A stretch of 34,759 nucleotides of DNA, taken from positions 1 to 34,759 of IMG/VR virus record IMGVR_UViG_3300030376_004728; one strand, written 5' to 3'. The stretch's first letter is position 1. Each line of letters opens with the position of its first letter. The notes below the pieces were generated by a model, which was not told where the DNA came from, searched no databases, and worked only from the letters and a program-made list of their open reading frames with translations. This DNA comes from a virus (Duplodnaviria; Caudoviricetes). Below, piece after piece: positions 702 through 34,759 of this stretch. The translations under genes and the position numbers were made by a program.

Positions 702-1526
702 ATGTTGTCAGATGAACAACAGAACGAGCTGGCCGCCGCGCTCGAAGGACTTAATCTTGGTGAGGAGCCCGCTGCTCAAGCACCTGAGCCCGAACCGGTA
801 GAGGTTCAGGAAGAAGCTAGCGAGCCCGTACATGAGTCGGAAGCACCAGAAGAGGTAGCGCTCGACGCTAGCGATGAGACCGATGAAGTTGAGGATGAGT
901 CGGGGCATAATGTGCCTTATTCTCGTTTCTCAAAGGTTATCGCAGCAAAGAACCAGTACGCTGATGAGGCTGAAACGCTCCGGCAGGAAGTGGATCGTCT
1001 TCGTCAAGCTGAGCAGGAACTTGAAACCCTGCGACGCTACAACATGAACCAGCCGCAACAAACCAGTTCGGAGGAATCGTATGACTATGATGATGTCGAT
1101 CCCTACGATAAGCGCTTGGCCATGTTGGAAAATAGACTGGTAGAGACAGAGCGTGAAGCAACGATCCGGGAGCACATGAGCCAGATGGAACAGCAGATTG
1201 CTGTCATCCAGCAAGAGCATCCCAATGTCGATCCGATCGCATTACTGCAGCATGTGCAGCATAATCCCGATGCGGACCTTATGGAACTGGCGACATCTGA
1301 AGCGGCGAGAGTTGCTGAGATGCGAGAGTCCGTAATTGCTGAGTACCTTGAATCGAACCCGCACCTGCAACAGCAGGCTCCTGCTACGCCTCCAGACGTG
1401 CCCCCTGAAGTTCGTAATAAATCAAACAATGGATCACGCGGCTTTGCTGGCTCTCAGAGTCCTAGTTCATGGGAAGACGCTCATGCACAGGCTCGGAAAG
1501 CAATTGAAGCAGCATGGACTGGGTGA
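702..1526 (+). CDS. Capsid scaffolding protein
   Basis: 274 aa with an acidic disordered N-terminus, VPYSRFSKVI motif, coiled coils and a short C-terminal helix. It lies directly upstream of the capsid gene. Confidence 0.8.
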   Translation: MLSDEQQNELAAALEGLNLGEEPAAQAPEPEPVEVQEEASEPVHESEAPEEVALDASDETDEVEDESGHNVPYSRFSKVIAAKNQYADEAETLRQEVDRLRQAEQELETLRRYNMNQPQQTSSEESYDYDDVDPYDKRLAMLENRLVETEREATIREHMSQMEQQIAVIQQEHPNVDPIALLQHVQHNPDADLMELATSEAARVAEMRESVIAEYLESNPHLQQQAPATPPDVPPEVRNKSNNGSRGFAGSQSPSSWEDAHAQARKAIEAAWTG

Positions 1527-1550
1527 TCCTAACTATTAAGGAATAGTACA

Positions 1551-2825
1551 ATGGCTGCTGCTAGTTTAACTACGTTAAGCGCGGTGATGAAGCAGTTCTA
1601 TCTGGGACCTTTGCAGGACCAGTTGAACAACGAAATCATGGCGTTTGACCTCTTCCAAAAGACCAAGGTCGATTGGGTTGGTAAAGAAGCGATCATTCCC
1701 GTGCGGACTGCTCGCAATAACTCTCCTGCGTTTAGCGCAACGGCTGCTCTTCCGCCCGTCGGAAGCCAGACCTATGCTTCGCTTACGGTTGAAGCAAAGT
1801 ACCTGTATGGTCGTATGCAAATCGATGGCCCGGCAATTGCTCAGGCTAAAGCCAGCGTAGGTGCGTTCATCAACGGCCTTCAGGTCGAACTTGATGGCGC
1901 AATGGAAACCGTCAAGAACGCTTGCGATCAAGCCCTGTTTACGGGTGCTGGTGGTGTTGGCTTCTTGAACGAGCGTGAAGCGTTCGGCGCTAATGCTGCA
2001 ATTGAGTTTTCGGGTAACATTGATTTGATCCCCGAGGGCGCTGGTGCCAAGGTTGCGGGTACGCTTGTTCGTCTCGACACCTACAAGTCGATTGCTGTGA
2101 CGATGTATCGTGATGCAGGCGCTAAGCAACACATCAAGTTTGATGCCGCTGTCGATACGCGTGACATTGATGGTGCGGGAACTGCTGCTGCGGGTACTGC
2201 TCACCTTGTCATCATTGGTGCTAAGACCGAAGAGTCCATGGGTATCTATGGCAACCTCGGTGAGAAGACGCACTTTGGTGTTGATCGAAGCACTGGCGCT
2301 AACGTTGTGCTGCAAAGCATTATTCGTGCGGCAAACCTTGCTGGCACGGGTGACCGCGTTGATCTTTCGACGGGTCGTATGCAGGCCATGATCGATGACA
2401 TTGCTACCGAATCGGGCTCCACGCCGGACTGCATGTTGGCACACTATGTGTTCCGTCAGCAGTACGTCGGTCAGTTGTCCTTCGTGACCACCACTGAAGC
2501 TGCAGCGGGAATTGCTTCGACAACCAGTCGCACTAAGTCGGTAGACAACGGTGATGCTGGCTTCGACATGGGTCAGTTGGCGTTCAACGGCATTCCGCTT
2601 AAGGTGAGTCGTCACTGCGGCAAGGGTCTCTTGATCTTCTTGCACACTCGCTCGTGGGCTCTCGTGCAGATCGAAGATCCGAACCTGGCTGACTTGGACG
2701 GCAACGTCCTTAGCCGTGTCTCGGCAAGCGATTCGTACGAAGCGTATGTCCGGTACTACTACAACTTGGTTTGCAAGCAGCCTAATCGCAATGCGATCTT
2801 GGTCGGCTTGAACTTCCCGGCGTAG
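1551..2825 (+). CDS. Major capsid protein (HK97-fold presumed)
   Basis: 424 aa, RBS AAGGA. N-terminus LSAVMKQFYLGPLQDQLN, FNGIPL and a C-terminal YYNLVCKQPNRNAIL pattern are typical of phage capsids. It follows the scaffold gene. Confidence 0.88.
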   Translation: MAAASLTTLSAVMKQFYLGPLQDQLNNEIMAFDLFQKTKVDWVGKEAIIPVRTARNNSPAFSATAALPPVGSQTYASLTVEAKYLYGRMQIDGPAIAQAKASVGAFINGLQVELDGAMETVKNACDQALFTGAGGVGFLNEREAFGANAAIEFSGNIDLIPEGAGAKVAGTLVRLDTYKSIAVTMYRDAGAKQHIKFDAAVDTRDIDGAGTAAAGTAHLVIIGAKTEESMGIYGNLGEKTHFGVDRSTGANVVLQSIIRAANLAGTGDRVDLSTGRMQAMIDDIATESGSTPDCMLAHYVFRQQYVGQLSFVTTTEAAAGIASTTSRTKSVDNGDAGFDMGQLAFNGIPLKVSRHCGKGLLIFLHTRSWALVQIEDPNLADLDGNVLSRVSASDSYEAYVRYYYNLVCKQPNRNAILVGLNFPA

Positions 2826-2832
2826 TACTAAC

Positions 2833-2979
2833 GTGGAGTGGATTGCCCTCTCACTGGATCTGGCTCAGACCGCATTGGTGTTTATCATCTGGCGTGATGT
2901 CCGGAACTGGTGGGGGGGTGATTCCTCCCAAGTCGGGGATGATGATTTGTCTCCGCAGCAGATTTTAGGGGAGCCCTAA
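2833..2979 (+). CDS. Small putative membrane protein, 48 aa (below ORF-track cutoff)
   Basis: GTG at 2833 gives MEWIALSLDLAQTALVFIIWRDVRNWWGG...ILGEP. Its TAA overlaps the next ATG (TAATG at 2977-2981) and it fills the gap exactly. The RBS is weak. Confidence 0.55.
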   Translation: MEWIALSLDLAQTALVFIIWRDVRNWWGGDSSQVGDDDLSPQQILGEP

Positions 2980-3230
2980 TGGCAAGCCGCCAGCTTCCTG
3001 GTATCAGCTCTGTTGATTTCTCCGAAGCGTTGCGCTTGGCAGCCGCTCGCAAAACGCGAGCCGAAGAAGAGCGCAAACGGAAAGAGGCGGAAAAGAGGGC
3101 CCTTATTATGAAGGCTGTTAATCCGTTGTTGTCGATGGCGGCAACAGCTTACGGGGGGCCTGTCGCAGGGTCTGTTGTCTCCGCAGCGCTGCCTGTTGCA
3201 GCAAAAGCTTTAGGGTCGTTAGGAAGATAA
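2979..3230 (+). CDS. Hypothetical protein, possible minor internal virion protein
   Basis: 83 aa with a charged helix followed by a Gly/Ala-rich hydrophobic tail. RBS GGGAG, coupled to neighbouring genes. Confidence 0.7.
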   Translation: MASRQLPGISSVDFSEALRLAAARKTRAEEERKRKEAEKRALIMKAVNPLLSMAATAYGGPVAGSVVSAALPVAAKALGSLGR

Positions 3231-3231
3231 A

Positions 3232-3468
3232 ATGAAAAACGGTGGAACTGGTTGGCGTAAGATCGTCATGGGTATCGCAGCTGCTTTGCTTCCGATGGTG
3301 TTGAGGGCTGTAAACCCCGAGATGCCTGTCGAAGAGATCGTGGTCAGCGTTATGGGCTTGCTTGGTGCAATCCTCGGTGTTGCTTGGCAGGATGCTGCTA
3401 AAGAGAAACGTGCGGCGCTGGAGAGTGTAAACAACCCCCCGGCACCATCCCCCGAAACCCAGGATTAA
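3232..3468 (+). CDS. Holin-like protein with two predicted TM segments
   Basis: 78 aa with a basic N-terminus, hydrophobic IVMGIAAALLPMVL and IVVSVMGLLGAILGVAW, and a charged tail. Confidence 0.65.
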   Translation: MKNGGTGWRKIVMGIAAALLPMVLRAVNPEMPVEEIVVSVMGLLGAILGVAWQDAAKEKRAALESVNNPPAPSPETQD

Positions 3469-3662
3469 AAAATCTTAGTCCGAAGGATTCTGGGGGCATC
3501 GATCTCAACCTTGGCAGTAACGACGATCTTTGGTTTGTCCGTGGGGATCTTACTCATCGTGTCAGCAGGCAATTTGAAGTCGGGATGACAGGCGAGATCA
3601 AATCAGACTGGGGCGGCGATCCTGAATGGGCAGTCGGCGCTGGTCTCAAATGGAGATGGTAA
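3402..3662 (+). CDS. Start-less -1 frame encoding four amphipathic beta-strands; candidate frameshift extension of 3232..3468
   Basis: Open between TAA at 3399 and TAA at 3660, with no ATG/GTG/TTG before 3585. It reads ...GGIDLNLGSNDDLWFVRGDLTHRVSRQFEVGMTGEIKSDWGGDPEWAVGAGLKWRW and ends 1 nt before the next ATG. Confidence 0.65.
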   Translation, partial: RETCGAGECKQPPGTIPRNPGLKNLSPKDSGGIDLNLGSNDDLWFVRGDLTHRVSRQFEVGMTGEIKSDWGGDPEWAVGAGLKWRW

Positions 3663-3663
3663 C

Positions 3664-3885
3664 ATGGCCTATGTAGGTTTCAAAAAGTTACAAGGCAAAC
3701 TCGAGGCTCAGGGTAAAAGCCCTAAAGCTGCTGGTGCTATTGCTGCCTCGATTGGTCGCAAGAAATACGGTAAGAAGAAGTTCAATAAAGCAGCGGCTGA
3801 GGGTAAGTCCTTGCGTGGTGCTGCGGCAAAACGCATCAAGAACAAGATGGTGGACTACTCCAAACAGAACGCTAGTTATTCGTAA
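3664..3885 (+). CDS. Small Lys-rich basic protein
   Basis: 73 aa with AIAASIGRKKYGKKKF motif and RBS GGAG. Confidence 0.8.
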   Translation: MAYVGFKKLQGKLEAQGKSPKAAGAIAASIGRKKYGKKKFNKAAAEGKSLRGAAAKRIKNKMVDYSKQNASYS

Positions 3886-3894
3886 GGTAGAGAC

Positions 3895-5796
3895 ATGAAG
3901 ATTCCTGACGCAGGTAAACTCTCGGATCAGATTGCAAAGTGTAGAAGTGATCGGCAGAAGTTTGCTCGTGCTTGGGATCTTTGCTTGCTCTTCCTTCAGG
4001 GAAAGCAGCACGTTAAATACGACAGGGTAAAGCAAACCTTTGTCCGCACGGGCGCAGATGAGATGCAGGTGACAATCAACCTGATCGTAAACATCTACCG
4101 CAACGTGCAAGCACGGCTCACGCTGGCCTATCCTTCGGCTACTGTGTTGCCAGCCAGTGAATCAAACGAGGACATCATCAAGGCGAAGAGCTGCGAGTAT
4201 GCCCTCAAGTATTACTGGAACAACGATAAGATCAAACGCAAGCTTGTTGACGCCATTCGGTGGCTCCTGACCTGCGGCAACGTAGGCCTTCATACTAAGT
4301 ACAACGGCGAGAAGGTAACCACCGAAGCCATTAGTCCGTATGACCTGTACTTCGAGCCGGGCCTTGACGATCCTGACCAATGTAATTGGATTGGGTACGC
4401 TAAGCTGGTGAACCGAGAAGAACTTGAAGAGGCCTATCCCAATAAGAAGGACATCATTAAGAACGCTGCGGAAGCTACTAACTCAACGCCTGGTGCGTCA
4501 TGGTTCAGGCTCCGGCAGACTTCGACACCGAAGGATCGAGTAGAAATCTATGATGTATACTTTCGCAGCGGTGAGCGTCGCGTTGTTCTTGGCGGTAGTT
4601 ATCTTTTTGAAGGGGAGTGGGTAGGCAAGACGATGCCGATCCAGTTCATCCGCTACACTCCGGTTCCGGGTCAGTTGTGGGGCATGGGCATGATTGAACC
4701 ATTGCTCGACATCCAAGACCAGTACAACCGAGTCCGTGGTCAGATCATTGAGAACAGTGACTTGATCGCTAACCCGAAGTGGATGATCCCGAAGAGCGCA
4801 GGTGTTGGCCCATCCAGCATTACCCGGCGACGAGGTGAGAAGGTCTATTACAACGACGTAGGTGGGCAACGACCTATGCCGGTTCAGATGCCATCACTAC
4901 CGGGATACGTTCTCCAGCAGGTATCAGTACTTCATGGAGAGATGTTAGACGTGGCTGGTGTCCACGCTACGAGCCTTGGTAAGCGAGCGGTAGGGGTTAC
5001 CTCAAGTGTAGCCATGCAATCGCTTGCAAGCAAAGACTCGCAACAGTTGATGGTGACGCAAGAGGACCTTGAAGAGGCCGTCATTGATCTGAGCAAAGTA
5101 GCGCTGACGTTGATGCAGAAGTACTACACCGAGAAGCGCATGGTGCGTATGCTCGATAACTTAGGGCAAGTCGTCTTCCATGCCTTAGACAGCACAAGTC
5201 TTATGAAGGACCCTGAAGTGTTCATCGAAGCGGGCTCTATGTTCCGTGATGAGCGTAAGGATCGTGATCAGAAGGTGCTCGACCTCGTCCAGATGGGCAT
5301 GTTGCAACCTGCTGACGCCATGAAGGAACTGACGTTTGGTAGTGGCCTCGAGCAGGTCAGCGAGAAACTGCAGGCTATGGCGCACGCTCAGGATCTTCTT
5401 GAGGCGGCTAAGTTGGGCGCTGCTATCGAGATCTTCCCGACGGACGACCTCAAGTCATTCGGCGAGGTCTTCGGTGACTACATCCGAACGGATCAGTATT
5501 ACCAGTTGCCGGAAGAGCGCCAGCAGTACATCCGTGACATCTACCTCAGTGTTGAGACCTTTGGCACGCAAGCGGAAGTCCAAGTCGAGGCACTCAAGAA
5601 CCGTAAGGTCTTCCCTCGGTCAGCACCCCCTGAGCAGATGACGGAGATGGCCGTGACCATGGAGTCCCCGACCTCCGCCATCCAAGCGCAGATGGAATCC
5701 GAACGCATGGGCGTTATGGATATGAACCGACAGATGGTAGACGAGCAAGGACCTGAGCAGGGTCTGCCGACCACGATTATGGGAGCCCAGGGATGA
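3895..5796 (+). CDS. Portal protein
   Basis: 633 aa. ISPYDLYFEPG, LWGMGMIEPLLDIQDQYNR, ANPKWMIP and EMLDVAGVH follow the pattern of P22-like portals. It precedes the adaptor and nozzle genes. Confidence 0.88.
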   Translation: MKIPDAGKLSDQIAKCRSDRQKFARAWDLCLLFLQGKQHVKYDRVKQTFVRTGADEMQVTINLIVNIYRNVQARLTLAYPSATVLPASESNEDIIKAKSCEYALKYYWNNDKIKRKLVDAIRWLLTCGNVGLHTKYNGEKVTTEAISPYDLYFEPGLDDPDQCNWIGYAKLVNREELEEAYPNKKDIIKNAAEATNSTPGASWFRLRQTSTPKDRVEIYDVYFRSGERRVVLGGSYLFEGEWVGKTMPIQFIRYTPVPGQLWGMGMIEPLLDIQDQYNRVRGQIIENSDLIANPKWMIPKSAGVGPSSITRRRGEKVYYNDVGGQRPMPVQMPSLPGYVLQQVSVLHGEMLDVAGVHATSLGKRAVGVTSSVAMQSLASKDSQQLMVTQEDLEEAVIDLSKVALTLMQKYYTEKRMVRMLDNLGQVVFHALDSTSLMKDPEVFIEAGSMFRDERKDRDQKVLDLVQMGMLQPADAMKELTFGSGLEQVSEKLQAMAHAQDLLEAAKLGAAIEIFPTDDLKSFGEVFGDYIRTDQYYQLPEERQQYIRDIYLSVETFGTQAEVQVEALKNRKVFPRSAPPEQMTEMAVTMESPTSAIQAQMESERMGVMDMNRQMVDEQGPEQGLPTTIMGAQG

Positions 5797-17600: not shown

Positions 17601-19283
17601 TTCGTAGCTGGGGAGCTTCTTAGGTCAAGCCGGAAAAACCTGACGGGCGATGATTTGTCTGGTCCTATTTTAGGGGCCCTAAGGCGACTAGGTGAAACCA
17701 AGCTTGGGTATATCCCCCGCAAGCTTAATGAGTTAGCCAGTAAAGCCTACGCCAAAGAGGATAACCTACCCAAGGTTCACATTGGAATGGATCGAGGTAG
17801 GCAAACGTTTCGAGACATTTTTGATCTTAGACCAAACGAACAGATGACTATTCGGACATCGCCTGTATCAACTAGGACGATCTTCAAAGATAAGTCAGGC
17901 CAGATCCGAGAGGGAACACCATCTAATCCCGGGCGAGTGCTGACCGACAGGGACATTAACAAGATCGTTGCGGCGGATGTCCGCCAGCATGTTCAAAAGT
18001 TTGTTGTCAGTTATGACGAGCGAAGTGGTCTCAATCGGTTTGTTACCAACAACCCAGTCCTAGCGCCGTTCAATCCGTTCTTCACGTTTACCGACAAAGC
18101 TGCGGGCCTTGGGGGGCGTAAAGGGTTTGTTGAGCACTTGCTTTTCCCGGCAGATGGGCTGGTTAGCACCTCGCCTAAAGTGGCATTGCGCCAAATTAAA
18201 AGCCGGGCAGCGTTGGCAGCTCGACGGGCAGTACTGGTCAACTCGTTTCAGACACTCGCATCGAACCAAGAAAACCTTTTGGCTCAAGCCCTGGCCTTTG
18301 ACCCAGGGGTTCCTAATCAAGTTATCTTTGAGATGCTAACTGACCCAAGCGCAATCCAGCATCGAGATATCTCCGGGATGTCGGTCTTTGGCCCAGGAGA
18401 AGTCAAGTACCGTGCGTTTGCTTATGCTATCGGCAAGATGCTTCAGTCTGTTGGGTACGATAAGAACCCTAAACTATCAGACAAGCAGAAGAGGTTCTTT
18501 ACGGAACTGAACAACGGCGAGGTAGCGCACCTTGGAACAATCGGCTCTTTGTTTGGGGTTGATCGTGGCCCTGGTTTATCGCTGATGGAAATCGTTCTAA
18601 ATAACGGAGAGAACAGGTACGGTCAGCCTACTAATATCGCAAATGAATTCCTTAAAAGGGCCGCCCCGTTTGCTGTTCCTGCTCCGATTGCAGTCGCTAT
18701 GAGAGAACTAGCAACGTCGGTGTCTGAGGACTTGTCAACGTTTAGCGGGCGGCAATTTGATCGCAACGATGTTCAGTTAAACGAAAAGCGCACAGACTTC
18801 TTCTTGCGTCGTTTCTTACTCCAAGGTGGTCGCAAGGTCCGCTTGTCAGGATCAACCAAATCAATTCTGGATCGCAAGATCGAGCGCATCAAGGATCACG
18901 AAAGGGAGCTGCGCAAGCGGCTTCTGGATCAGATGATTCTATTGACTAACGAGAAGAAAGAACTTGAGCGCCAGAAGAAGAAGATCGAAGACGGCCAAGG
19001 TTCCGTTGGCGCTGAGATGTTTATAGATACTCCGGGCGACATGACATCGCTCACAGATCAAATCCAAGAAAAAGCAGACGGTCTAGAGAGAACTACGCAA
19101 AAGTTTAAAGAAGCTCACACGAGGCTCGCTCCTGTTATGAAAGAAGAGATACAGCGCTTGGTAGATGCTTACAAAACGGTTGAGCGCATAGGCAGCCTAA
19201 GAAAGCGCCTCAAGCAGCGCATTCCTACGGGCAAAGTACCGTCTCTCAAAGAGCGCCGGCGTATCATGAAGGAGGCACGATGA
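14652..19283 (+). CDS. Large putative internal virion (ejection/DNA transfer) protein 3
   Basis: 1543 aa, largely helical, TAATG coupling, last gene of the trio. No catalytic motif recognised. Confidence 0.65.
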   Translation: MQQPSRKRVTLTEPLVVEGTVDGLVDELKDLASTTAEVDPSAQTFEEKEEEKKKRLQQQEADRAKGVATPVEAARAIGGLVGDAVVKPVMRTGQLAVGVALGTQSIFDHIATSLAANEAMNGLLERLENQSLTAPQRQAVKDQMEDVEKAYIEMNPAMQVYKQVDQELEDRFKNNSSYNNAISDFGEVVTSFPTMVRAFLEAAYDEDPETMKKLGFMMSGGGIVSTMAMLDPDKLGRNFDARPASVILGVSPAFGIVARAPRAMQVLRGRFGKQTDVLLRAVETVDNTVRSGMAKVAQSEIPGRVMTEAVRPYANVLERLPGELTSSVAAGLRGFGKVGEDVVRVGESRTTQKTKNILGKKQRITELVPGVRFMTVGDLANSFASGAKKGFLAGVPVETGLVLAAARLLYPNTKMTRNIARSVGQFLRHTSAQSGASPELAVRGIMMASAEQKNRIRSIADRIDKAFREEDALTKRDGDTRVDVFFEGEPFQPGQKRQIDYEFTESGQEFLPVSRADALDTLGKLEKQRDLLLNDQRKPGAKKYTNQQIRQLNAQIKSLRQAVESDAPDVFPNQTLREAIDDLDAVLREAGVDSGIELVKSRLANVADRNAILLQNGDVAELVIRAIKRKYGNRLSRAGVTDAKLRKLILDHAEEPYFGSTRLAATVDIENVGKLDLDSLTRRAFESLRPEKQKEVMGQVASNAALRYSQLVTEAAKGAALKRESAKLGMAQSLEGVSLTNVQPQVYAMALARMLAGKDLTRGGVSLPQVIPKSASGPALPAALRDLATDRRKARKILEDVLGDEPSAREEMAFERVLRQTADEVGDYTAGDGYAQSFTNDLKVKIADNPDLPADVRKLAQQVETGEYAYSPGFAGTLNWMSKYQGTPGFWRDIIQLFKGNQTVRNIMPHINNSVGNVSNSMLSSGEGPVQFIVNSYRDGLVYLDHKAGKLGDYRKNTTPGSEEYFTNRAAVAVDQSGVGNTDFVAGELLRSSRKNLTGDDLSGPILGALRRLGETKLGYIPRKLNELASKAYAKEDNLPKVHIGMDRGRQTFRDIFDLRPNEQMTIRTSPVSTRTIFKDKSGQIREGTPSNPGRVLTDRDINKIVAADVRQHVQKFVVSYDERSGLNRFVTNNPVLAPFNPFFTFTDKAAGLGGRKGFVEHLLFPADGLVSTSPKVALRQIKSRAALAARRAVLVNSFQTLASNQENLLAQALAFDPGVPNQVIFEMLTDPSAIQHRDISGMSVFGPGEVKYRAFAYAIGKMLQSVGYDKNPKLSDKQKRFFTELNNGEVAHLGTIGSLFGVDRGPGLSLMEIVLNNGENRYGQPTNIANEFLKRAAPFAVPAPIAVAMRELATSVSEDLSTFSGRQFDRNDVQLNEKRTDFFLRRFLLQGGRKVRLSGSTKSILDRKIERIKDHERELRKRLLDQMILLTNEKKELERQKKKIEDGQGSVGAEMFIDTPGDMTSLTDQIQEKADGLERTTQKFKEAHTRLAPVMKEEIQRLVDAYKTVERIGSLRKRLKQRIPTGKVPSLKERRRIMKEAR

Positions 19284-19669
19284 GCCACGGGTATCCACCA
19301 AAGTTCAGCCCTGAAGAGTTTCACTGCAAATGCGGCAAGTACTGTGATGGGCCATCTCCACATGCTGATAAGACTCGTCACCTCGCTTGGACACTTCAGG
19401 CGATCCGGGACGAAGTCGCTGCTCCGATCAAGATCAACAGTGGCTATCGATGCCCTGAGCACAACAAGGCGATCGGTGGCGCCACGAAGTCATTTCATGT
19501 CCAAGGGATGGCGGCTGACCTTCACTGTGCGGCTGTTTCTCCAGAGGAACTGGCCAACACTATTGAAGATATGATGGAACACGGGCAGATTCCCAATGGC
19601 GGGCTAGGTCGTTACAATACGTTCACGCACATTGACATCCGCCACCAGAAAGGAAGGTGGTCAGGATGA
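19280..19669 (+). CDS. Peptidase M15A-family endolysin
   Basis: FSPEEFHCKCG, INSGYRCPEHNKAIGGATKSFHVQGMAAD (H-x6-D) and FTHIDIR zinc ligands. Confidence 0.92.
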   Translation: MSHGYPPKFSPEEFHCKCGKYCDGPSPHADKTRHLAWTLQAIRDEVAAPIKINSGYRCPEHNKAIGGATKSFHVQGMAADLHCAAVSPEELANTIEDMMEHGQIPNGGLGRYNTFTHIDIRHQKGRWSG

Positions 19670-30413: not shown

Positions 30414-30767
30414 ATGGATAGTAATCAAATACTACAAATGCTGGCAGACTTTGGCGCTCTAGGCTTGGCGTCTGGTGCGATCTTCTGGTTGTACCTCAAG
30501 ATGGCTAAACGCATGGATGACCTAACCGACAGCTTTCAAGTTCAACTCAGAGAACAGATGGAAGACTGCAATCGGCGAGAAGCAGAAGTCCGTGATCGCT
30601 TTATGGAAGTCGTCAATAAATATGACCAAGAGCGCCTGCACTGGGTCACCCGTCTCGACAGTATCGATAAAGAAATGCAAGACACTGAAAGCTTGATCAA
30701 AGAAGGTCTAGGTGAGATGCGCAGGCACTACGCAAAGATCAGCGCAGCAATCGGGAAGGAAGTCTGA
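30414..30767 (+). CDS. Single-TM plus coiled-coil membrane protein (holin-like)
   Basis: LADFGALGLASGAIFWLYL followed by a charged coiled coil. TGATG coupling. Confidence 0.65.
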   Translation: MDSNQILQMLADFGALGLASGAIFWLYLKMAKRMDDLTDSFQVQLREQMEDCNRREAEVRDRFMEVVNKYDQERLHWVTRLDSIDKEMQDTESLIKEGLGEMRRHYAKISAAIGKEV

Positions 30768-31186
30768 TGGCTAAGAAGAAGCCGAACTTTAAAATGAGGG
30801 TGGTTCAAGAGCCTAAAAAGCGGCTCAAGCCAACAGAGGCTGAACTTGAACAGGTGACGTTCGAGGCAGGCGGATCATCGCCAGAGCAGAAGCGTCGGAG
30901 CTTGGATAAAATCCGCAGGGACGCCAAAGCATATGCGCCTACATTAGCTTACGAAATCGCATACCAGAAAAAAGTCGAAGACGGCACGGTAACGCTAGAA
31001 GACATCGAGGAATTTGGTGATTACTCGCACCCGCTCTATCAGAAGATGTTAAGAGACAACCCAAACACCCTAAGTGATGCCCAAGTTGAAGAGCAATATG
31101 AGCGCATTACAAGGGCAGAGAACAAAATGGCTAAGCGCAAACAAGCCCTGCGCAAAGCAGCGGAAGCTAAAGCCCGGAAGCAGTAA
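30767..31186 (+). CDS. Hypothetical protein ending ALRKAAEAKARKQ
   Basis: 139 aa, coupled on both sides. Confidence 0.8.
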   Translation: MAKKKPNFKMRVVQEPKKRLKPTEAELEQVTFEAGGSSPEQKRRSLDKIRRDAKAYAPTLAYEIAYQKKVEDGTVTLEDIEEFGDYSHPLYQKMLRDNPNTLSDAQVEEQYERITRAENKMAKRKQALRKAAEAKARKQ

Positions 31187-31566
31187 TGGCTAAGACCGCA
31201 ACTAAGACCGATCCCGCTAAATGGGAGCAAGCCAAACGAGACGCCAAGGCTAAGATGGGCGGTAAGCACAGCGCCCGTGCCATGCAGCTTGCTACCCAGA
31301 TGTACAAGAAGCGAGGCGGTGGTTACTCCGGAGCAAAGAAGGAAACCTCGCTCAGCAAGTGGACCAAGCAGGACTGGAAGTACTCAGGCAAAGATAAGCC
31401 CGGCAAAGGGGGCTCAGGTGTGTACTTGCCCAAGAACCGTATCGCTAGTCTCAAGAGTACAGCAGCTGGCAGGTTAGCACTTAAGAAGGGTGAGGCGAAG
31501 AAAGCCAAAGCAACCCGTGAAGGCAAGCAGTACTCACAGCATGGTCTGGGTAAAGGGTTGGCATGA
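31186..31566 (+). CDS. Basic protein, DUF5872-like
   Basis: GKHSARAMQLATQMYKKRGGGY, SLSKWTKQDW and YLPK. Family recalled by eye. Confidence 0.7.
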   Translation: MAKTATKTDPAKWEQAKRDAKAKMGGKHSARAMQLATQMYKKRGGGYSGAKKETSLSKWTKQDWKYSGKDKPGKGGSGVYLPKNRIASLKSTAAGRLALKKGEAKKAKATREGKQYSQHGLGKGLA

Positions 31567-31868
31567 GCGCCGAGCGGATCGAAGCAGCACGTCGCCTGAT
31601 GAAGAAGCTAGGGCTTGAGGGCTTCAATAAGCCTAAGCGCACACCGAACCATCCAACTAAGTCGCATGTGGTGATGGCTAAAGAAGGTAATCAAGTGAAG
31701 TTGATCCGGTTTGGCGAGCAAGGGGCAAGTACAGCAGGCAAGCCCAAGGCTGGTGAAACAGATCGCATGAAGATGAAACGTAAATCATTCAAATCCAGAC
31801 ACGCTAAGAACATCGCCAAAGGTAAGATGAGCGCAGCGTACTGGGCTGACAAAACGAAATGGAGCTAG
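31563..31868 (+). CDS. Small basic phage protein
   Basis: NKPKRTPNHPTKSHVV..LIRFGEQG..RKSFKSRH..SAAYWADKTKW, a pattern I recall from environmental phage head regions. Confidence 0.75.
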   Translation: MSAERIEAARRLMKKLGLEGFNKPKRTPNHPTKSHVVMAKEGNQVKLIRFGEQGASTAGKPKAGETDRMKMKRKSFKSRHAKNIAKGKMSAAYWADKTKWS

Positions 31869-31872
31869 AACT

Positions 31873-32556
31873 ATGGCAACGAGAACACCGCAACGAGGAG
31901 CTGGCGGCGAAGCTGCTGATGTTAGCCGTAAAGAGCGCCGGCACGGTAAAAGCGAACTAAGTCCGAGGCTCACAGGAGCCATGAAAGCCGGCGGTAAGAT
32001 GGCGGCAGAAGAAGCTGCTATGGCAGTGTTCCCGGCTGTGCGCATTGCTAAGATGATAAGACCCATTGTAGGCAAGGGAGCAAAGGCGCTTGGTAAAGCT
32101 ATGGGAAGAGGGGTGAGCCCGTACAATTCCGGATCTAAAACCTTTTCTTCGATGGAGGCTATGAAAGCGGCTGAAAAGGCGCACGACAAAGCCGGGTTTG
32201 ACGACGATCTGTCGCTTGACTTGATTTACGGTGACGGTCCTGACTTACCAAATTGGTGGAAACGCCTTCCTGAAAAGGAGAAGGTGAAAATCTACAAGCA
32301 GCACAACAAACCAAAAGACACCGACTTTGTAGATAAGAAAACAGGGAATCGGAAAAAAATTGGCGGCGGCTGGGATATCCTCGGGTTGCTTACCGGCGAC
32401 TACGGCAAGAAAAACTCCACGGAACAAGCTGTGAGGCTGTTTGCTGAAACGGGTAAGAATCCAGCAATTATAAAACAATACGCAAAATCGTTATCCCACG
32501 TGATAGAATTGAAACCAGCCCTCCGCAAAGCCGCCGAAGCTAAGGCTAAGAAGTAA
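31873..32556 (+). CDS. Hypothetical basic protein ending ALRKAAEAKAKK
   Basis: 227 aa, RBS GGAG, TAATG coupling to TerS. Confidence 0.8.
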   Translation: MATRTPQRGAGGEAADVSRKERRHGKSELSPRLTGAMKAGGKMAAEEAAMAVFPAVRIAKMIRPIVGKGAKALGKAMGRGVSPYNSGSKTFSSMEAMKAAEKAHDKAGFDDDLSLDLIYGDGPDLPNWWKRLPEKEKVKIYKQHNKPKDTDFVDKKTGNRKKIGGGWDILGLLTGDYGKKNSTEQAVRLFAETGKNPAIIKQYAKSLSHVIELKPALRKAAEAKAKK

Positions 32557-33089
32557 TGTCTCGCAAGCCACGCATTATTCTCCCAGCAGCGGTATGGGCT
32601 AAGATCCGTGCCGAGTATGAAGCCGGTGTGCCCGTCAAGCACCTAGCGGATACCTTTAACCTGACTGAAGCAGCCGTCTATCGACGCAAGAAGAGCGAAG
32701 AGTGGTCTAGGGAAGTCTCGGTCATCAGTGACGACATGCTGTCCAAGGCACGCAAGGAAACAGAACAGCGCATCATCGAGCATATCCAAGAGCAAGAAGT
32801 GGACATGAAGCAGGTGATTGACCAGCACAAGTCCGTGTCTCAGCAGATCATGGAGCGAGCAGGTAAACTCCTAGATGCAGTCGATCTGATCCCGGATACC
32901 GAAGTCTCCAAAAAGGCACACGCTCTGAAGACCTTGTCTGATGTGATCACCGCTCAGATCCGTAACGAGCGTCGTACATGGAACATTGATGAGAAGGGTG
33001 CAGACACCTCGCTCGAGGCATTGCTTGACGAGCTGGATGACGAAGAAGAGAAGCGTAACAACACCCCGCAACCGGTGCTGGTGAAGTGA
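32556..33089 (+). CDS. terS: Terminase small subunit (putative)
   Basis: N-terminal HTH WAKIRAEYEAGVPVKHLADTFNLTEAAVYRRKKSEEW, then helices. It lies upstream of TerL. Confidence 0.72.
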   Translation: MSRKPRIILPAAVWAKIRAEYEAGVPVKHLADTFNLTEAAVYRRKKSEEWSREVSVISDDMLSKARKETEQRIIEHIQEQEVDMKQVIDQHKSVSQQIMERAGKLLDAVDLIPDTEVSKKAHALKTLSDVITAQIRNERRTWNIDEKGADTSLEALLDELDDEEEKRNNTPQPVLVK

Positions 33090-33343
33090 GTATAGAAGCC
33101 ATAGAACTACTCAAGATGGTACTCAACGGGGCTGATGGCGCCCTGGTTATTGTCTTGCTCTATACACTGCATACCGCTAGGGCGTGGACCAAGCGAGTTG
33201 AAGACGCTATTGAAAATATTGAGCGACTCAATAAGATTGTAGAAGATAACCAAGCTGACATCGCCAAACTCCGGCGCATGTACTTTGCCCTGAAGGACCG
33301 ACTACGCCATGCCCAAGATGAGAGCCGACAACCAAATCATTGA
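33086..33343 (+). CDS. Single-TM plus coiled-coil membrane protein
   Basis: 85 aa, GTGA overlap, hydrophobic GALVIVLLYTL. Confidence 0.65.
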   Translation: MSIEAIELLKMVLNGADGALVIVLLYTLHTARAWTKRVEDAIENIERLNKIVEDNQADIAKLRRMYFALKDRLRHAQDESRQPNH

Positions 33344-33734: not shown

Positions 33735-34759
33735 GCAAAGACAGAGTACGGTCTGAACTGATCAAGTGCAGGAAAGACTTCAAGTACTTTGCGCTGCGCT
33801 ACCTAAAGATCGTCAACACCAGCGGTGAGATCGTCAATCTTAAGCTCAACCAGCCGCAGATTGAAATCATCGACTCGGTGGACGGTAGTTTCCAAACAAT
33901 GGTGCTCAAAGCCAGAAAGCTTGGGTCGTCCACGGTTATCGCTGGCTACTTCTTCTGGAAGGCTCTGTTTAAGAAGAATACCCGAGTCGCTGTCGTCGCT
34001 CACACTGACGAGGCCGCCAAAGAGCTGTTCACGATCTACCAGCACTTCTACAAGAACCTTCCGAACGAAATGCGCCCTAAGGCTATCAAGAACAGGCATA
34101 ACGAACTGAACCTCGTCACCGGTTCTAAGATCAAGATTGGCAGTGCCGACTCCGACAGCTTCCGTGGACAGACGTACCAATATATCCATGCCTCCGAGTA
34201 TGCGTTCTGGTCTAACGTCGAGAAGACCATCGCCTCATTGTTTCAGACTGCTGATGCAAATGCTAGCATCGTGCTGGAGTCCACAGCGAACGGGCTCAAT
34301 GGTGCTTACGACCTATGGGTCAACGACGCTGGTTACACTAAGATCTTCCTACCGTGGATGATTGATGGCCGATGCCAGATCCCCAAGGCACGGTTTACTG
34401 ACTACACCAAACTGGAGCGAGAATACCGTGCGGAACATAAGCTTAGTGATGAGCAGTTTAACTGGTTGGTGTACACACTACGCGTCAAGTGTGCGAACAA
34501 CTGGCGCATATTCCATCAGGAGTTTCCGTCATCACCAGACGTTGCGTTCGTTACATCGGGCGATCGATTCTTCCCGGAGACCTATAGCGTCACCACCGCC
34601 AAGCCAGGATACCACCAGTGGGAGAAGAGACAGAAGTACCACATCTATTCAATGGGAGTGGACACCGCTTCTGGTTCTCCTGGTGGGGACTTTAGCACTA
34701 TTAAAGTTCTGGATGTCACCGACAAAAAATCCATTCGAGAAGTAGCGTCGTTCTACGAA
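33725..34759 (+). CDS. terL: Terminase large subunit, N-terminal ATPase part (absent from the ORF track; continues at base 1)
   Basis: Translated by hand: MELGKDRV...LNQPQ...VLKARKLGSST (Walker A)...FRGQTYQYIHASE (Walker B)...VLESTANG...QEFPSSP..AF...MGVDTASG. Confidence 0.95.
   Translation, partial: MELGKDRVRSELIKCRKDFKYFALRYLKIVNTSGEIVNLKLNQPQIEIIDSVDGSFQTMVLKARKLGSSTVIAGYFFWKALFKKNTRVAVVAHTDEAAKELFTIYQHFYKNLPNEMRPKAIKNRHNELNLVTGSKIKIGSADSDSFRGQTYQYIHASEYAFWSNVEKTIASLFQTADANASIVLESTANGLNGAYDLWVNDAGYTKIFLPWMIDGRCQIPKARFTDYTKLEREYRAEHKLSDEQFNWLVYTLRVKCANNWRIFHQEFPSSPDVAFVTSGDRFFPETYSVTTAKPGYHQWEKRQKYHIYSMGVDTASGSPGGDFSTIKVLDVTDKKSIREVASFYE
34661..34758. repeat. Terminal direct repeat, copy 2
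   Basis: Identical to 1-98. Confidence 0.97.

Follow-up and report, generated by a model that had tools for sequence, protein, structure and literature searches.

Probable −1 recoding in a candidate phage lysis gene, predicted to join a holin-like hairpin to a four-strand outer-membrane-type tail

Class II holins have two transmembrane helices in an N-in/C-in arrangement, and YadA-type anchors place a pore-filling helix before their first strand and carry an N-terminal passenger. The disruptin gp28 of phage phiKT is reportedly a cationic peptide that attacks the outer membrane without being a spanin, and the slip site of lambda G/GT is G GGA AAG. The closest −1 frameshifts to the one described here, as far as the available portions of the papers go, are those of E. 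coli dnaX (PMC3711429), IS3/IS911 (PMC4066793), and tail assembly chaperone genes (PMC10885494), where a heptamer precedes the first stop, an SD-like element lies upstream and a hairpin downstream, and the short product is made in larger amounts than the long one. In the accessible part of PMC4066793, G_GG.A_AA.G and A_AA.A_AA.G are among the best motifs in E. coli, and C_CC.C_CC.G is one of 18 motifs with >0.10% unstimulated shifting and stands outside the best ones. For the outer membrane step of lysis, the available text of PMC6139136 describes membrane proteins in overlapping reading frames (lambda Rz/Rz1) and a single chain joining inner and outer membrane (T1 gp11); it reports 91/677 phage genomes without an identifiable spanin, many of them marine, and its section 15 names as an untested possibility that "an OMP could act as an o-spanin". 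Further, in the part of the LambdaSo work available (10.1101/2024.01.23.576932), lysis requires Lcc6, an additional small membrane protein encoded by a separate 65-aa gene. In the available descriptions, neither gp28 nor Lcc6 involves a beta-barrel or recoding, unlike the locus presented here.

This locus lies in a window of 34,759 nt (the whole stretch of DNA that was analysed), a circularly assembled tailed-phage genome of 52% GC in which bases 1-98 are repeated at 34661-34758 (a 98-bp end repeat), i.e. a circular contig and apparently complete genome. Terminase, major capsid protein, a P22-like portal, and an M15 endolysin are encoded in it. Sequencing runs containing the region 3232-3662 are mostly marine, and RNA runs contain just 0.08-0.13 of the region's words. 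A holin-like gene of 78 aa occupies 3232..3468 (plus strand, as for all features of the locus given below) and ends at a frame-0 TAA (3466..3468) that is invariant in 14/14 aligned rows; the 78-aa form is the predicted main product of the locus. In the window, the −1 frame is open over 3402-3659, its TAA (3660-3662) stands one nucleotide before the next ATG (3664), and its first ATG/GTG/TTG leaves 25 codons (identical locus L084). A sequence-only reading of the window had already described the 78-aa gene and this −1 frame together with a C6 run at 3435-3440 and a C5 run at 3449-3453, all of them correctly, and had proposed a −1 frameshift leading to a fusion of about 143 aa, which the frame switch of selection and the conservation of the break described below bear out.

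The predicted shift site is the slippery heptamer C CCC CCG at 3435..3441; it is placed there because selection switches frame at this point and −1 frame stops occur directly before the C run. Synonymous and non-synonymous codon differences were counted per frame in 10 distinct close sequences, giving 78/29 for frame 0 over 3232-3401, then 11/6 for frame 0 and 2/21 for the −1 frame over 3402-3434, and finally 2/11 for frame 0 and 8/6 for the −1 frame over 3435-3468. A −1 frame stop stands immediately 5' of the C run in 4/10 of these sequences and five codons earlier in a fifth. The earlier description of a −1 frame running from 3402 is thus right for the window itself, but the useful frame begins at 3435, with stops before the C run in relatives. 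Tandem slippage at 3435-3441 would join 70 residues to an extension of 73 aa plus stop (3441..3662), a predicted fusion of 70 + 73 = 143 residues deduced from the sequence.

Ribosomes would slip from CCC CCG back onto CCC CCC, aided by an upstream GGAG and a downstream stem-loop, and judging from the sequence we regard slippage at this heptamer with such help as very likely. The SD-like GGAG (3420..3423), a possible upstream stimulator, lies 11 nt 5' of the slip site (6-17 nt is the spacing used for upstream SD-like sites in the available text of PMC4066793), and across the family an SD-like site is found 7-16 nt upstream of the heptamer in 37/40 loci but is tied to conserved Glu codons. The possible downstream stimulator, a stem-loop at 3449..3495, starts 7 nt 3' of the heptamer and spans the frame-0 stop. 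Its fold z ranges from −0.9 to −2.4 in 6 loci, and 94% of its cells are paired across 8 sequences, with no two-sided (compensatory) change; more generally, a downstream fold z below −1 was obtained in 20/40 loci vs 8/40 control windows. Both candidate stimulators appear plausible from these patterns.

Conservation of the frame break was followed in two sets of loci. A GLKWRW-motif scan of viral contigs returned 82 loci, 50 assigned by eye to the family and 32 not, and after removal of 2 incomplete loci and 1 misparsed locus the viral set holds 40 distinct junctions including the window. The metagenome set comprises 89 loci, 77 of them distinct and 74 with a tail (the 3/77 without one were left out), and three further loci were too short for the N-part, one of these also being without the junction. 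A strict in-frame heptamer of the form X XXY YYZ lies 6-39 nt before the stop in 38/40 distinct viral loci (the two exceptions, 2/40, read C CCC CAG) and is present in 72 of the 73 metagenome loci in which the junction is covered, against a background of 5/5315 codons in window genes and 13/2802 further upstream within the ORFs of the family loci themselves. Likewise, the N-part is out of frame with the tail, in a −1 relation, in 71/71 metagenome loci where it is detectable, and in frame in 0. The heptamers are spelled CCCCCCG, GGGAAAG, GGGAAAC, AAAAAAG, AAAAAAC/A, or CCCTTTA/G, and the same break is kept in relatives down to about 13-41% tail identity. Because the viral and metagenome sets overlap and the loci are related, what chiefly counts in this evidence is that the heptamer is spelled differently from clade to clade (C-run, G3A3, A6, C3T3). 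Relatives of the window gene share the motifs A AAA AAG and G GGA AAG with the known −1 systems and likewise have the heptamer shortly before the first stop, with candidate SD-like and hairpin elements on either side; unlike those systems, the gene encodes a holin-like membrane protein, the shift adds a beta-barrel module, and the motif in the window's clade is a C run. We hold it to be highly probable, judging from these comparisons, that programmed −1 frameshifting at this gene is real and conserved and is not a sequencing error. As a side observation, the frame-0 stop follows directly 3' of the G GGA AAG heptamer in L144 and L218, the tightest form of the signal.

A homopolymer run is a natural place for a sequencing error or for the decay of one ordinary fused gene into a pseudogene, and the sequence-only reading had itself suggested looking for an added C at the two runs and for fused homologues. 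This explanation has a negligible probability, and sequencing error was rejected: the same break occurs in 13/13 close relatives and throughout the metagenome loci, at heptamers of differing sequence, and assembled contigs, on which the check for added bases was done, contain none. Thirteen related viral contigs have zero indels across 3232-3662, and no base is added at either C run in contig X1 (depth 45; possibly the source of the window DNA) or in contig X7, which comes from another study and spans 3234-3900; the junction falls in a gap in contigs X5 and X6, which are therefore uninformative on the C runs. Homologues with a detectable N-part in the metagenome loci keep the frame break and are fused in none of the cases. 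A full two-helix-plus-tail protein was found neither among proteins of 47-151 aa (with words from the window's tail only) nor among those of 145-2000 aa (a weak search by the tool's own note), and a further fusion search gave 7 matches, 3 of them pieces of family members and one more, the only other that was inspected, a repeat protein; in protein collections the gene is represented by its short form or by fragments. It is very improbable as well that RNA polymerase slips on the C run, or that the tail is a separate gene with a non-standard start. Polymerase slippage would agree with the five-C run, which alone stays unchanged at the site within the window's clade, and with C CCC CAG, which precludes tandem tRNA slippage; against it, other clades have G GGA AAC, G GGA AAG, and C CCT TTA, which are tRNA-slippage motifs and not long runs, always in the right frame, and a separate tail gene is contradicted by the lack of any start codon common to the tails. 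Separately from these comparisons, one 81-aa variant on a 574-bp contig (P0008) has its C end in another frame from the C run on, probably through a one-base loss or error at the run.

Another difference from known −1 systems is that the extension itself is overlapped by a third ORF. This ORF-X (3469..3588), a probable third product that the sequence-only reading had overlooked, consists of 39 open frame-0 codons after the holin stop with one transmembrane-like segment, and its candidacy is based on hydrophobicity and low synonymous variation. Among 27 representatives with <85% identity, a 19-residue frame-0 stretch with a Kyte-Doolittle value of 1.74-3.06 is found in 27/27, and it exceeds synonymous recoding of the tail under window codon usage in 26/27 (p <0.05) and within-gene permutation in 20/27 (p <0.05; the window itself p 0.13); the corresponding controls were 6/76 window tiles and 7/27 N-parts. 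In the 17 sequences of the window's clade, 8/18 degenerate tail codons vary over 3498-3587, vs 42/44 in the holin and 8/8 further 3' (p 5.6e-6). The pattern recurs in two further clades (p 0.001 and 0.049) and is missing from a third (p 0.26). An explanation of this low variation by RNA structure was rejected, with fold z of −1.2 to 0.9 over 3498-3587 in the 17 sequences. A second in-frame stop follows the holin in 13/91 loci, which rules out readthrough as a general route to ORF-X, and in all 13 it is followed by ATG (12) or GTG/TTG (1); in the window, the start candidates are an ATC at 3472 that an AGGA precedes by 7 nt, and a TTG at 3511. On this evidence, ORF-X is somewhat more probably made than not, and if so would likely be a small accessory membrane peptide, for which Lcc6, in the portion of its description available, is a possible analogue.

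The tail encoded by the extension is modelled with four amphipathic beta strands (3489..3659). An AlphaFold2 model built with 41 sequences has four strands at tail residues 19-28, 32-42, 47-58, and 64-73, as the sequence-only reading had supposed, with a mean pLDDT of 78 and a disordered linker; residues 1-18 are without a helix and residues 1-14 have a pLDDT <50. When faces were assigned by hand from residue alternation in 41 rows, one face was 91% A/V/L/I/M/F/W/Y and 0% charged and the other 37% charged. Moreover, the tail has a Trp/His/Phe girdle and a short periplasmic-type turn, and its C-terminal GLKWRW (3642..3659) fits the beta-signal for BAM, defined as G-X-X-phi-X-phi in the accessible part of PMC13721041. 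This end is present in 13/13 loci found through the N-part, and its conservation in distant loci is circular because those were found through the GLKWRW motif. A three-copy model scored 0.66 vs 0.00 for the best control and pairs strand 1 with strand 4 of the neighbour, so that the predicted oligomer joins edge to edge; runs agreed in at least 92% of contacts and partner pLDDT was at least 74. The mark used was reached by 20/30 solved pairs and 1/23 single chains, counts that are roughly valid for three copies, and the output gives edge pairing, not closure of a ring; the score may also have been reached because the tail resembles anchors of known structure. The amphipathic faces, the beta-signal, and the trimer score support the earlier proposal of an outer-membrane-type tail.

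Family searches with the tail gave no match in Pfam, PHROG, or PDB sequences, and the Pfam anchor profile found 0/41 members at E 0.5; PF24653 Phage_OMP, an Atlas lead (rank 19, score 0.91), was not backed by Pfam and was rejected. A fold search returned none at E 0.001, and a second gave one match, an uncharacterised giant-virus protein, with phage YadA-anchor adhesins among the nearest viral folds (E ~0.003). In a third, all matches had Z <8, a generic level, and included the Hia, AtaA, and YadA anchors and gasdermin hairpins; gasdermin pore hairpins were top by Z (7.1 and 7.0, a level called common by the tool), and the AtaA anchor matched with Z 5.6 and an rmsd of 2.3 over 55 residues. The comparison with a YadA-type anchor that the sequence-only reading had drawn goes no further than a likeness. 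Four C-terminal strands per chain, a terminal aromatic beta-signal, and predicted edge-to-edge oligomerisation are shared with YadA/Hia/AtaA, but the fold matches are not significant, there is no Pfam match, no helix precedes strand 1, the inward face is charged, no passenger or signal peptide is present, and the N-part is a membrane hairpin. The tail is thus predicted from models to behave as a partial outer-membrane barrel outside the trimeric autotransporter family. In one relative (L062) the tail's last codons occur twice, at 1501-1521 and 1828-1848, 327 nt apart, which may be a local duplication or an assembly artefact.

The 78-aa product is modelled as a helical hairpin (H7-27 and H33-67); two of its segments are hydrophobic, and its C-terminal helix is basic. 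Median K/R counts before, between, and after the helices are 3, 0, and 3 in 27 representatives, which by the positive-inside rule would mean an N-in/C-in protein whose tail starts in the cytoplasm, just as the sequence-only reading had cautioned. In being small, with two transmembrane helices, a predicted N-in/C-in topology, and a charged C end, the product resembles a class II holin; the endolysin linkage in some relatives is a further likeness, and the lack of a family match over cut-off and the frameshift extension are differences. PHROG 9987 matched weakly (best E 0.0014, in 8/30 members), Atlas holin scores were weak at 0.84-0.86, and no Pfam family for the N-part was over cut-off; the nearest named holin leads are PHROG 9987 and Pfam Phage_holin_9, _10, _Dp1, and Holin_SPP1. 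These matches are weak but one-sided, pointing to a holin. A lipoprotein N-part, suggested by a lipobox-like VGGC in one relative, was rejected, its Cys not being kept in that clade.

A role in lysis is suggested by the association with the endolysin. The Peptidase M15 endolysin of the window (19280..19669, plus strand) lies 15.6 kb away from the frameshifted gene, which is flanked here by the capsid and portal genes, and in other clades it stands directly behind that gene. All 15 family genomes searched encode the enzyme (15/15); it lies at most 127 nt behind the gene in 7/40 viral loci, while another 6 have it upstream at a distance of 273-558 nt, and it is at most 200 nt behind in 22/74 metagenome loci. 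The sequence-only reading had seen no lipobox spanin pair, and a six-frame scan of window ORFs of at least 40 aa, which recovered lambda Rz1 and T1 gp11 as positive controls, likewise found no lipobox ORF in the circular window genome. In nine relatives at least 90% complete, lipobox matches were short, without SD, and shadow frames by eye, apart from one on the family gene. The product also differs from an i-spanin in having two hydrophobic helices and C-in charges in place of a single N-terminal transmembrane segment and a periplasmic coiled coil. On the whole, the neighbourhoods and sequence features make a lysis role for the frameshifted gene likely, and the locus is a probable lysis gene with what appears to be real recoding. 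Of the lysis or spanin-like device proposed earlier, the link to lysis is the part that stands; the spanin-like part is something we infer, because the positive-inside pattern puts the tail in the cytoplasm.

The most far-reaching interpretation, with a probability of roughly 0.4, is a three-product lysis device within 431 nt that comprises a holin, a holin-barrel fusion replacing spanins, and an embedded membrane peptide. In the explanation that we prefer, the short 78-aa product would be the holin, and a minority of ribosomes would add the barrel module to give a minor 143-aa form; it is fairly likely that the short form is of class II type and that the long form joins it in its membrane patches, in proportions that depend on slippage. 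That the tail of the fusion oligomerises as a beta-barrel and breaches the outer membrane at lysis instead of a spanin falls slightly short of even odds, when arrival after waiting in the cytoplasm and arrival by export are taken together. The main difficulty for an outer-membrane role is the charge pattern, since with N-in/C-in the tail would initially be on the side where BAM cannot receive it. The tail might remain cytoplasmic at first and, once the holin lesion is open and the wall has been cleared by the M15 endolysin, reach the outer membrane, insert via its beta-signal, and tie the lesion rim to the outer membrane; its cytoplasmic position would in that case act as a safety catch, the outer membrane being reachable only after lesion opening and wall cutting. 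This waiting route is the most speculative step and rather doubtful. The fusion would resemble T1 gp11 in joining both membranes in one chain and Rz/Rz1 in the overlap of reading frames for membrane proteins, and it would differ from both in the absence of a lipobox, the beta-barrel anchor, and recoding, with an orientation the reverse of that of gp11.

Export during synthesis of the fusion is an unlikely alternative route to the same end, in which helix 2 fails as stop-transfer, helix 1 serves as an N-in signal anchor, and the remainder becomes periplasmic, yielding an inverted unimolecular spanin with an N-end inner-membrane anchor and a C-end beta-anchor that is checked by the cell wall. 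Helix 2 is rich in Gly/Ala/Ser (median 0.47 vs 0.24 for helix 1) and its Kyte-Doolittle value is ~1.0 in some clades, but it reaches 2.2-2.3 in the window's clade and is followed by approximately three K/R across the family. Export would leave ~60 residues between helix 1 and strand 1, the spacing from helix 2 to strand 1 being just ~35 residues. Such a build is seen in P0023, a protein of 91 aa in which helix 1 continues into the tail in a single frame and helix 2 is absent, yet this is a singleton on a 550-bp contig and may be a natural deletion or an assembly chimera. A tail that never gets to the outer membrane and stays on the cytoplasmic side, forming an inner-membrane beta-pore or an antiholin-like timing form, is the direct fit to the positive-inside pattern, and the gasdermin pore hairpins at the top of the fold list, at their generic level, point the same way; the exact G-X-X-phi-X-phi end, the Trp/His/Phe girdle, and the short turn are traits of outer-membrane proteins, however, and a lipoprotein-free genome would be left without an outer-membrane solution, and we consider it quite unlikely. 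Family phages carry other candidates for outer-membrane attack, namely small basic proteins and single-TM coiled coils, which counts against an outer-membrane breach by the tail. Improbable, too, is a function outside lysis, be it as a phage-made outer-membrane protein that serves in superinfection exclusion or in surface display, or as a helper of morphogenesis: the position between capsid and portal genes in the window, the phage YadA-anchor adhesins nearby in fold, and the weakness of the holin matches would suit it, but the gene stands immediately 5' of the M15 endolysin in several divergent clades, it is placed among late structural genes, and no passenger domain or conserved cleavable signal was seen.

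If the three-product reading is true, widespread lipoprotein-free marine phages would disrupt the outer membrane by a device of a new class, whose stoichiometry recoding determines, and a lysis gene would join the tail and capsid genes as a place of phage −1 frameshifting. It offers a concrete, clonable 431-nt candidate for how spanin-less phages cross the outer membrane, and gene callers miss both the extension and ORF-X. A search of the accessible literature found no report of a holin frameshift or a barrel-type spanin. The word "holin" has 0 occurrences in the first 300,000 of the 449,034 characters of PMC5009743 and 0 in the main texts of PMC3711429 and PMC10885494; the accessible part of PMC10885494 does list lysins among genes known to contain a frameshift.

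Neither the N-part nor the tail matched any of 50,697 phage records, among which there was one distant capsid match, and a host look-up in GTDB gave 4 matches, none of the family (of the 3/4 inspected, two were TolC-like by eye and one was off-frame); these searches thus yielded no cultured relative and no host. Scanning 2700-4000 gave no internal promoter or terminator above chance. The window order over 702-5796 is terminase, scaffold-like ORF, capsid, small ORFs, and portal, the portal gene being 3' of the capsid gene. Immediately upstream of the holin-like gene, an 83-aa ORF (2979-3230) has a Gly/Ala-rich hydrophobic C end; it had no tblastn match in 9 related genomes and is absent from the near-identical locus L012/L086, where the upstream sequence continues straight into the holin start; in L112, L114, and L060 the frameshifted gene has ORFs resembling it in build on its 5' side. 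Small, very Lys/Arg-rich ORFs occur at 3664-3885 and 30767-32556, and similar ones cluster round the gene in many relatives; they are possible DNA-binding or disruptin-like candidates. A single-TM plus coiled-coil protein (30414..30767, plus strand), a candidate further lysis protein, is present in 4/9 related genomes by tblastn and has no Pfam family over cut-off, and a second protein of this kind lies at 33086-33343. Both presumably resemble BhlA/UviB holin-like proteins, with no Pfam match of that type for either, and the same single-TM coiled-coil build precedes the frameshifted gene in endolysin-adjacent clades.
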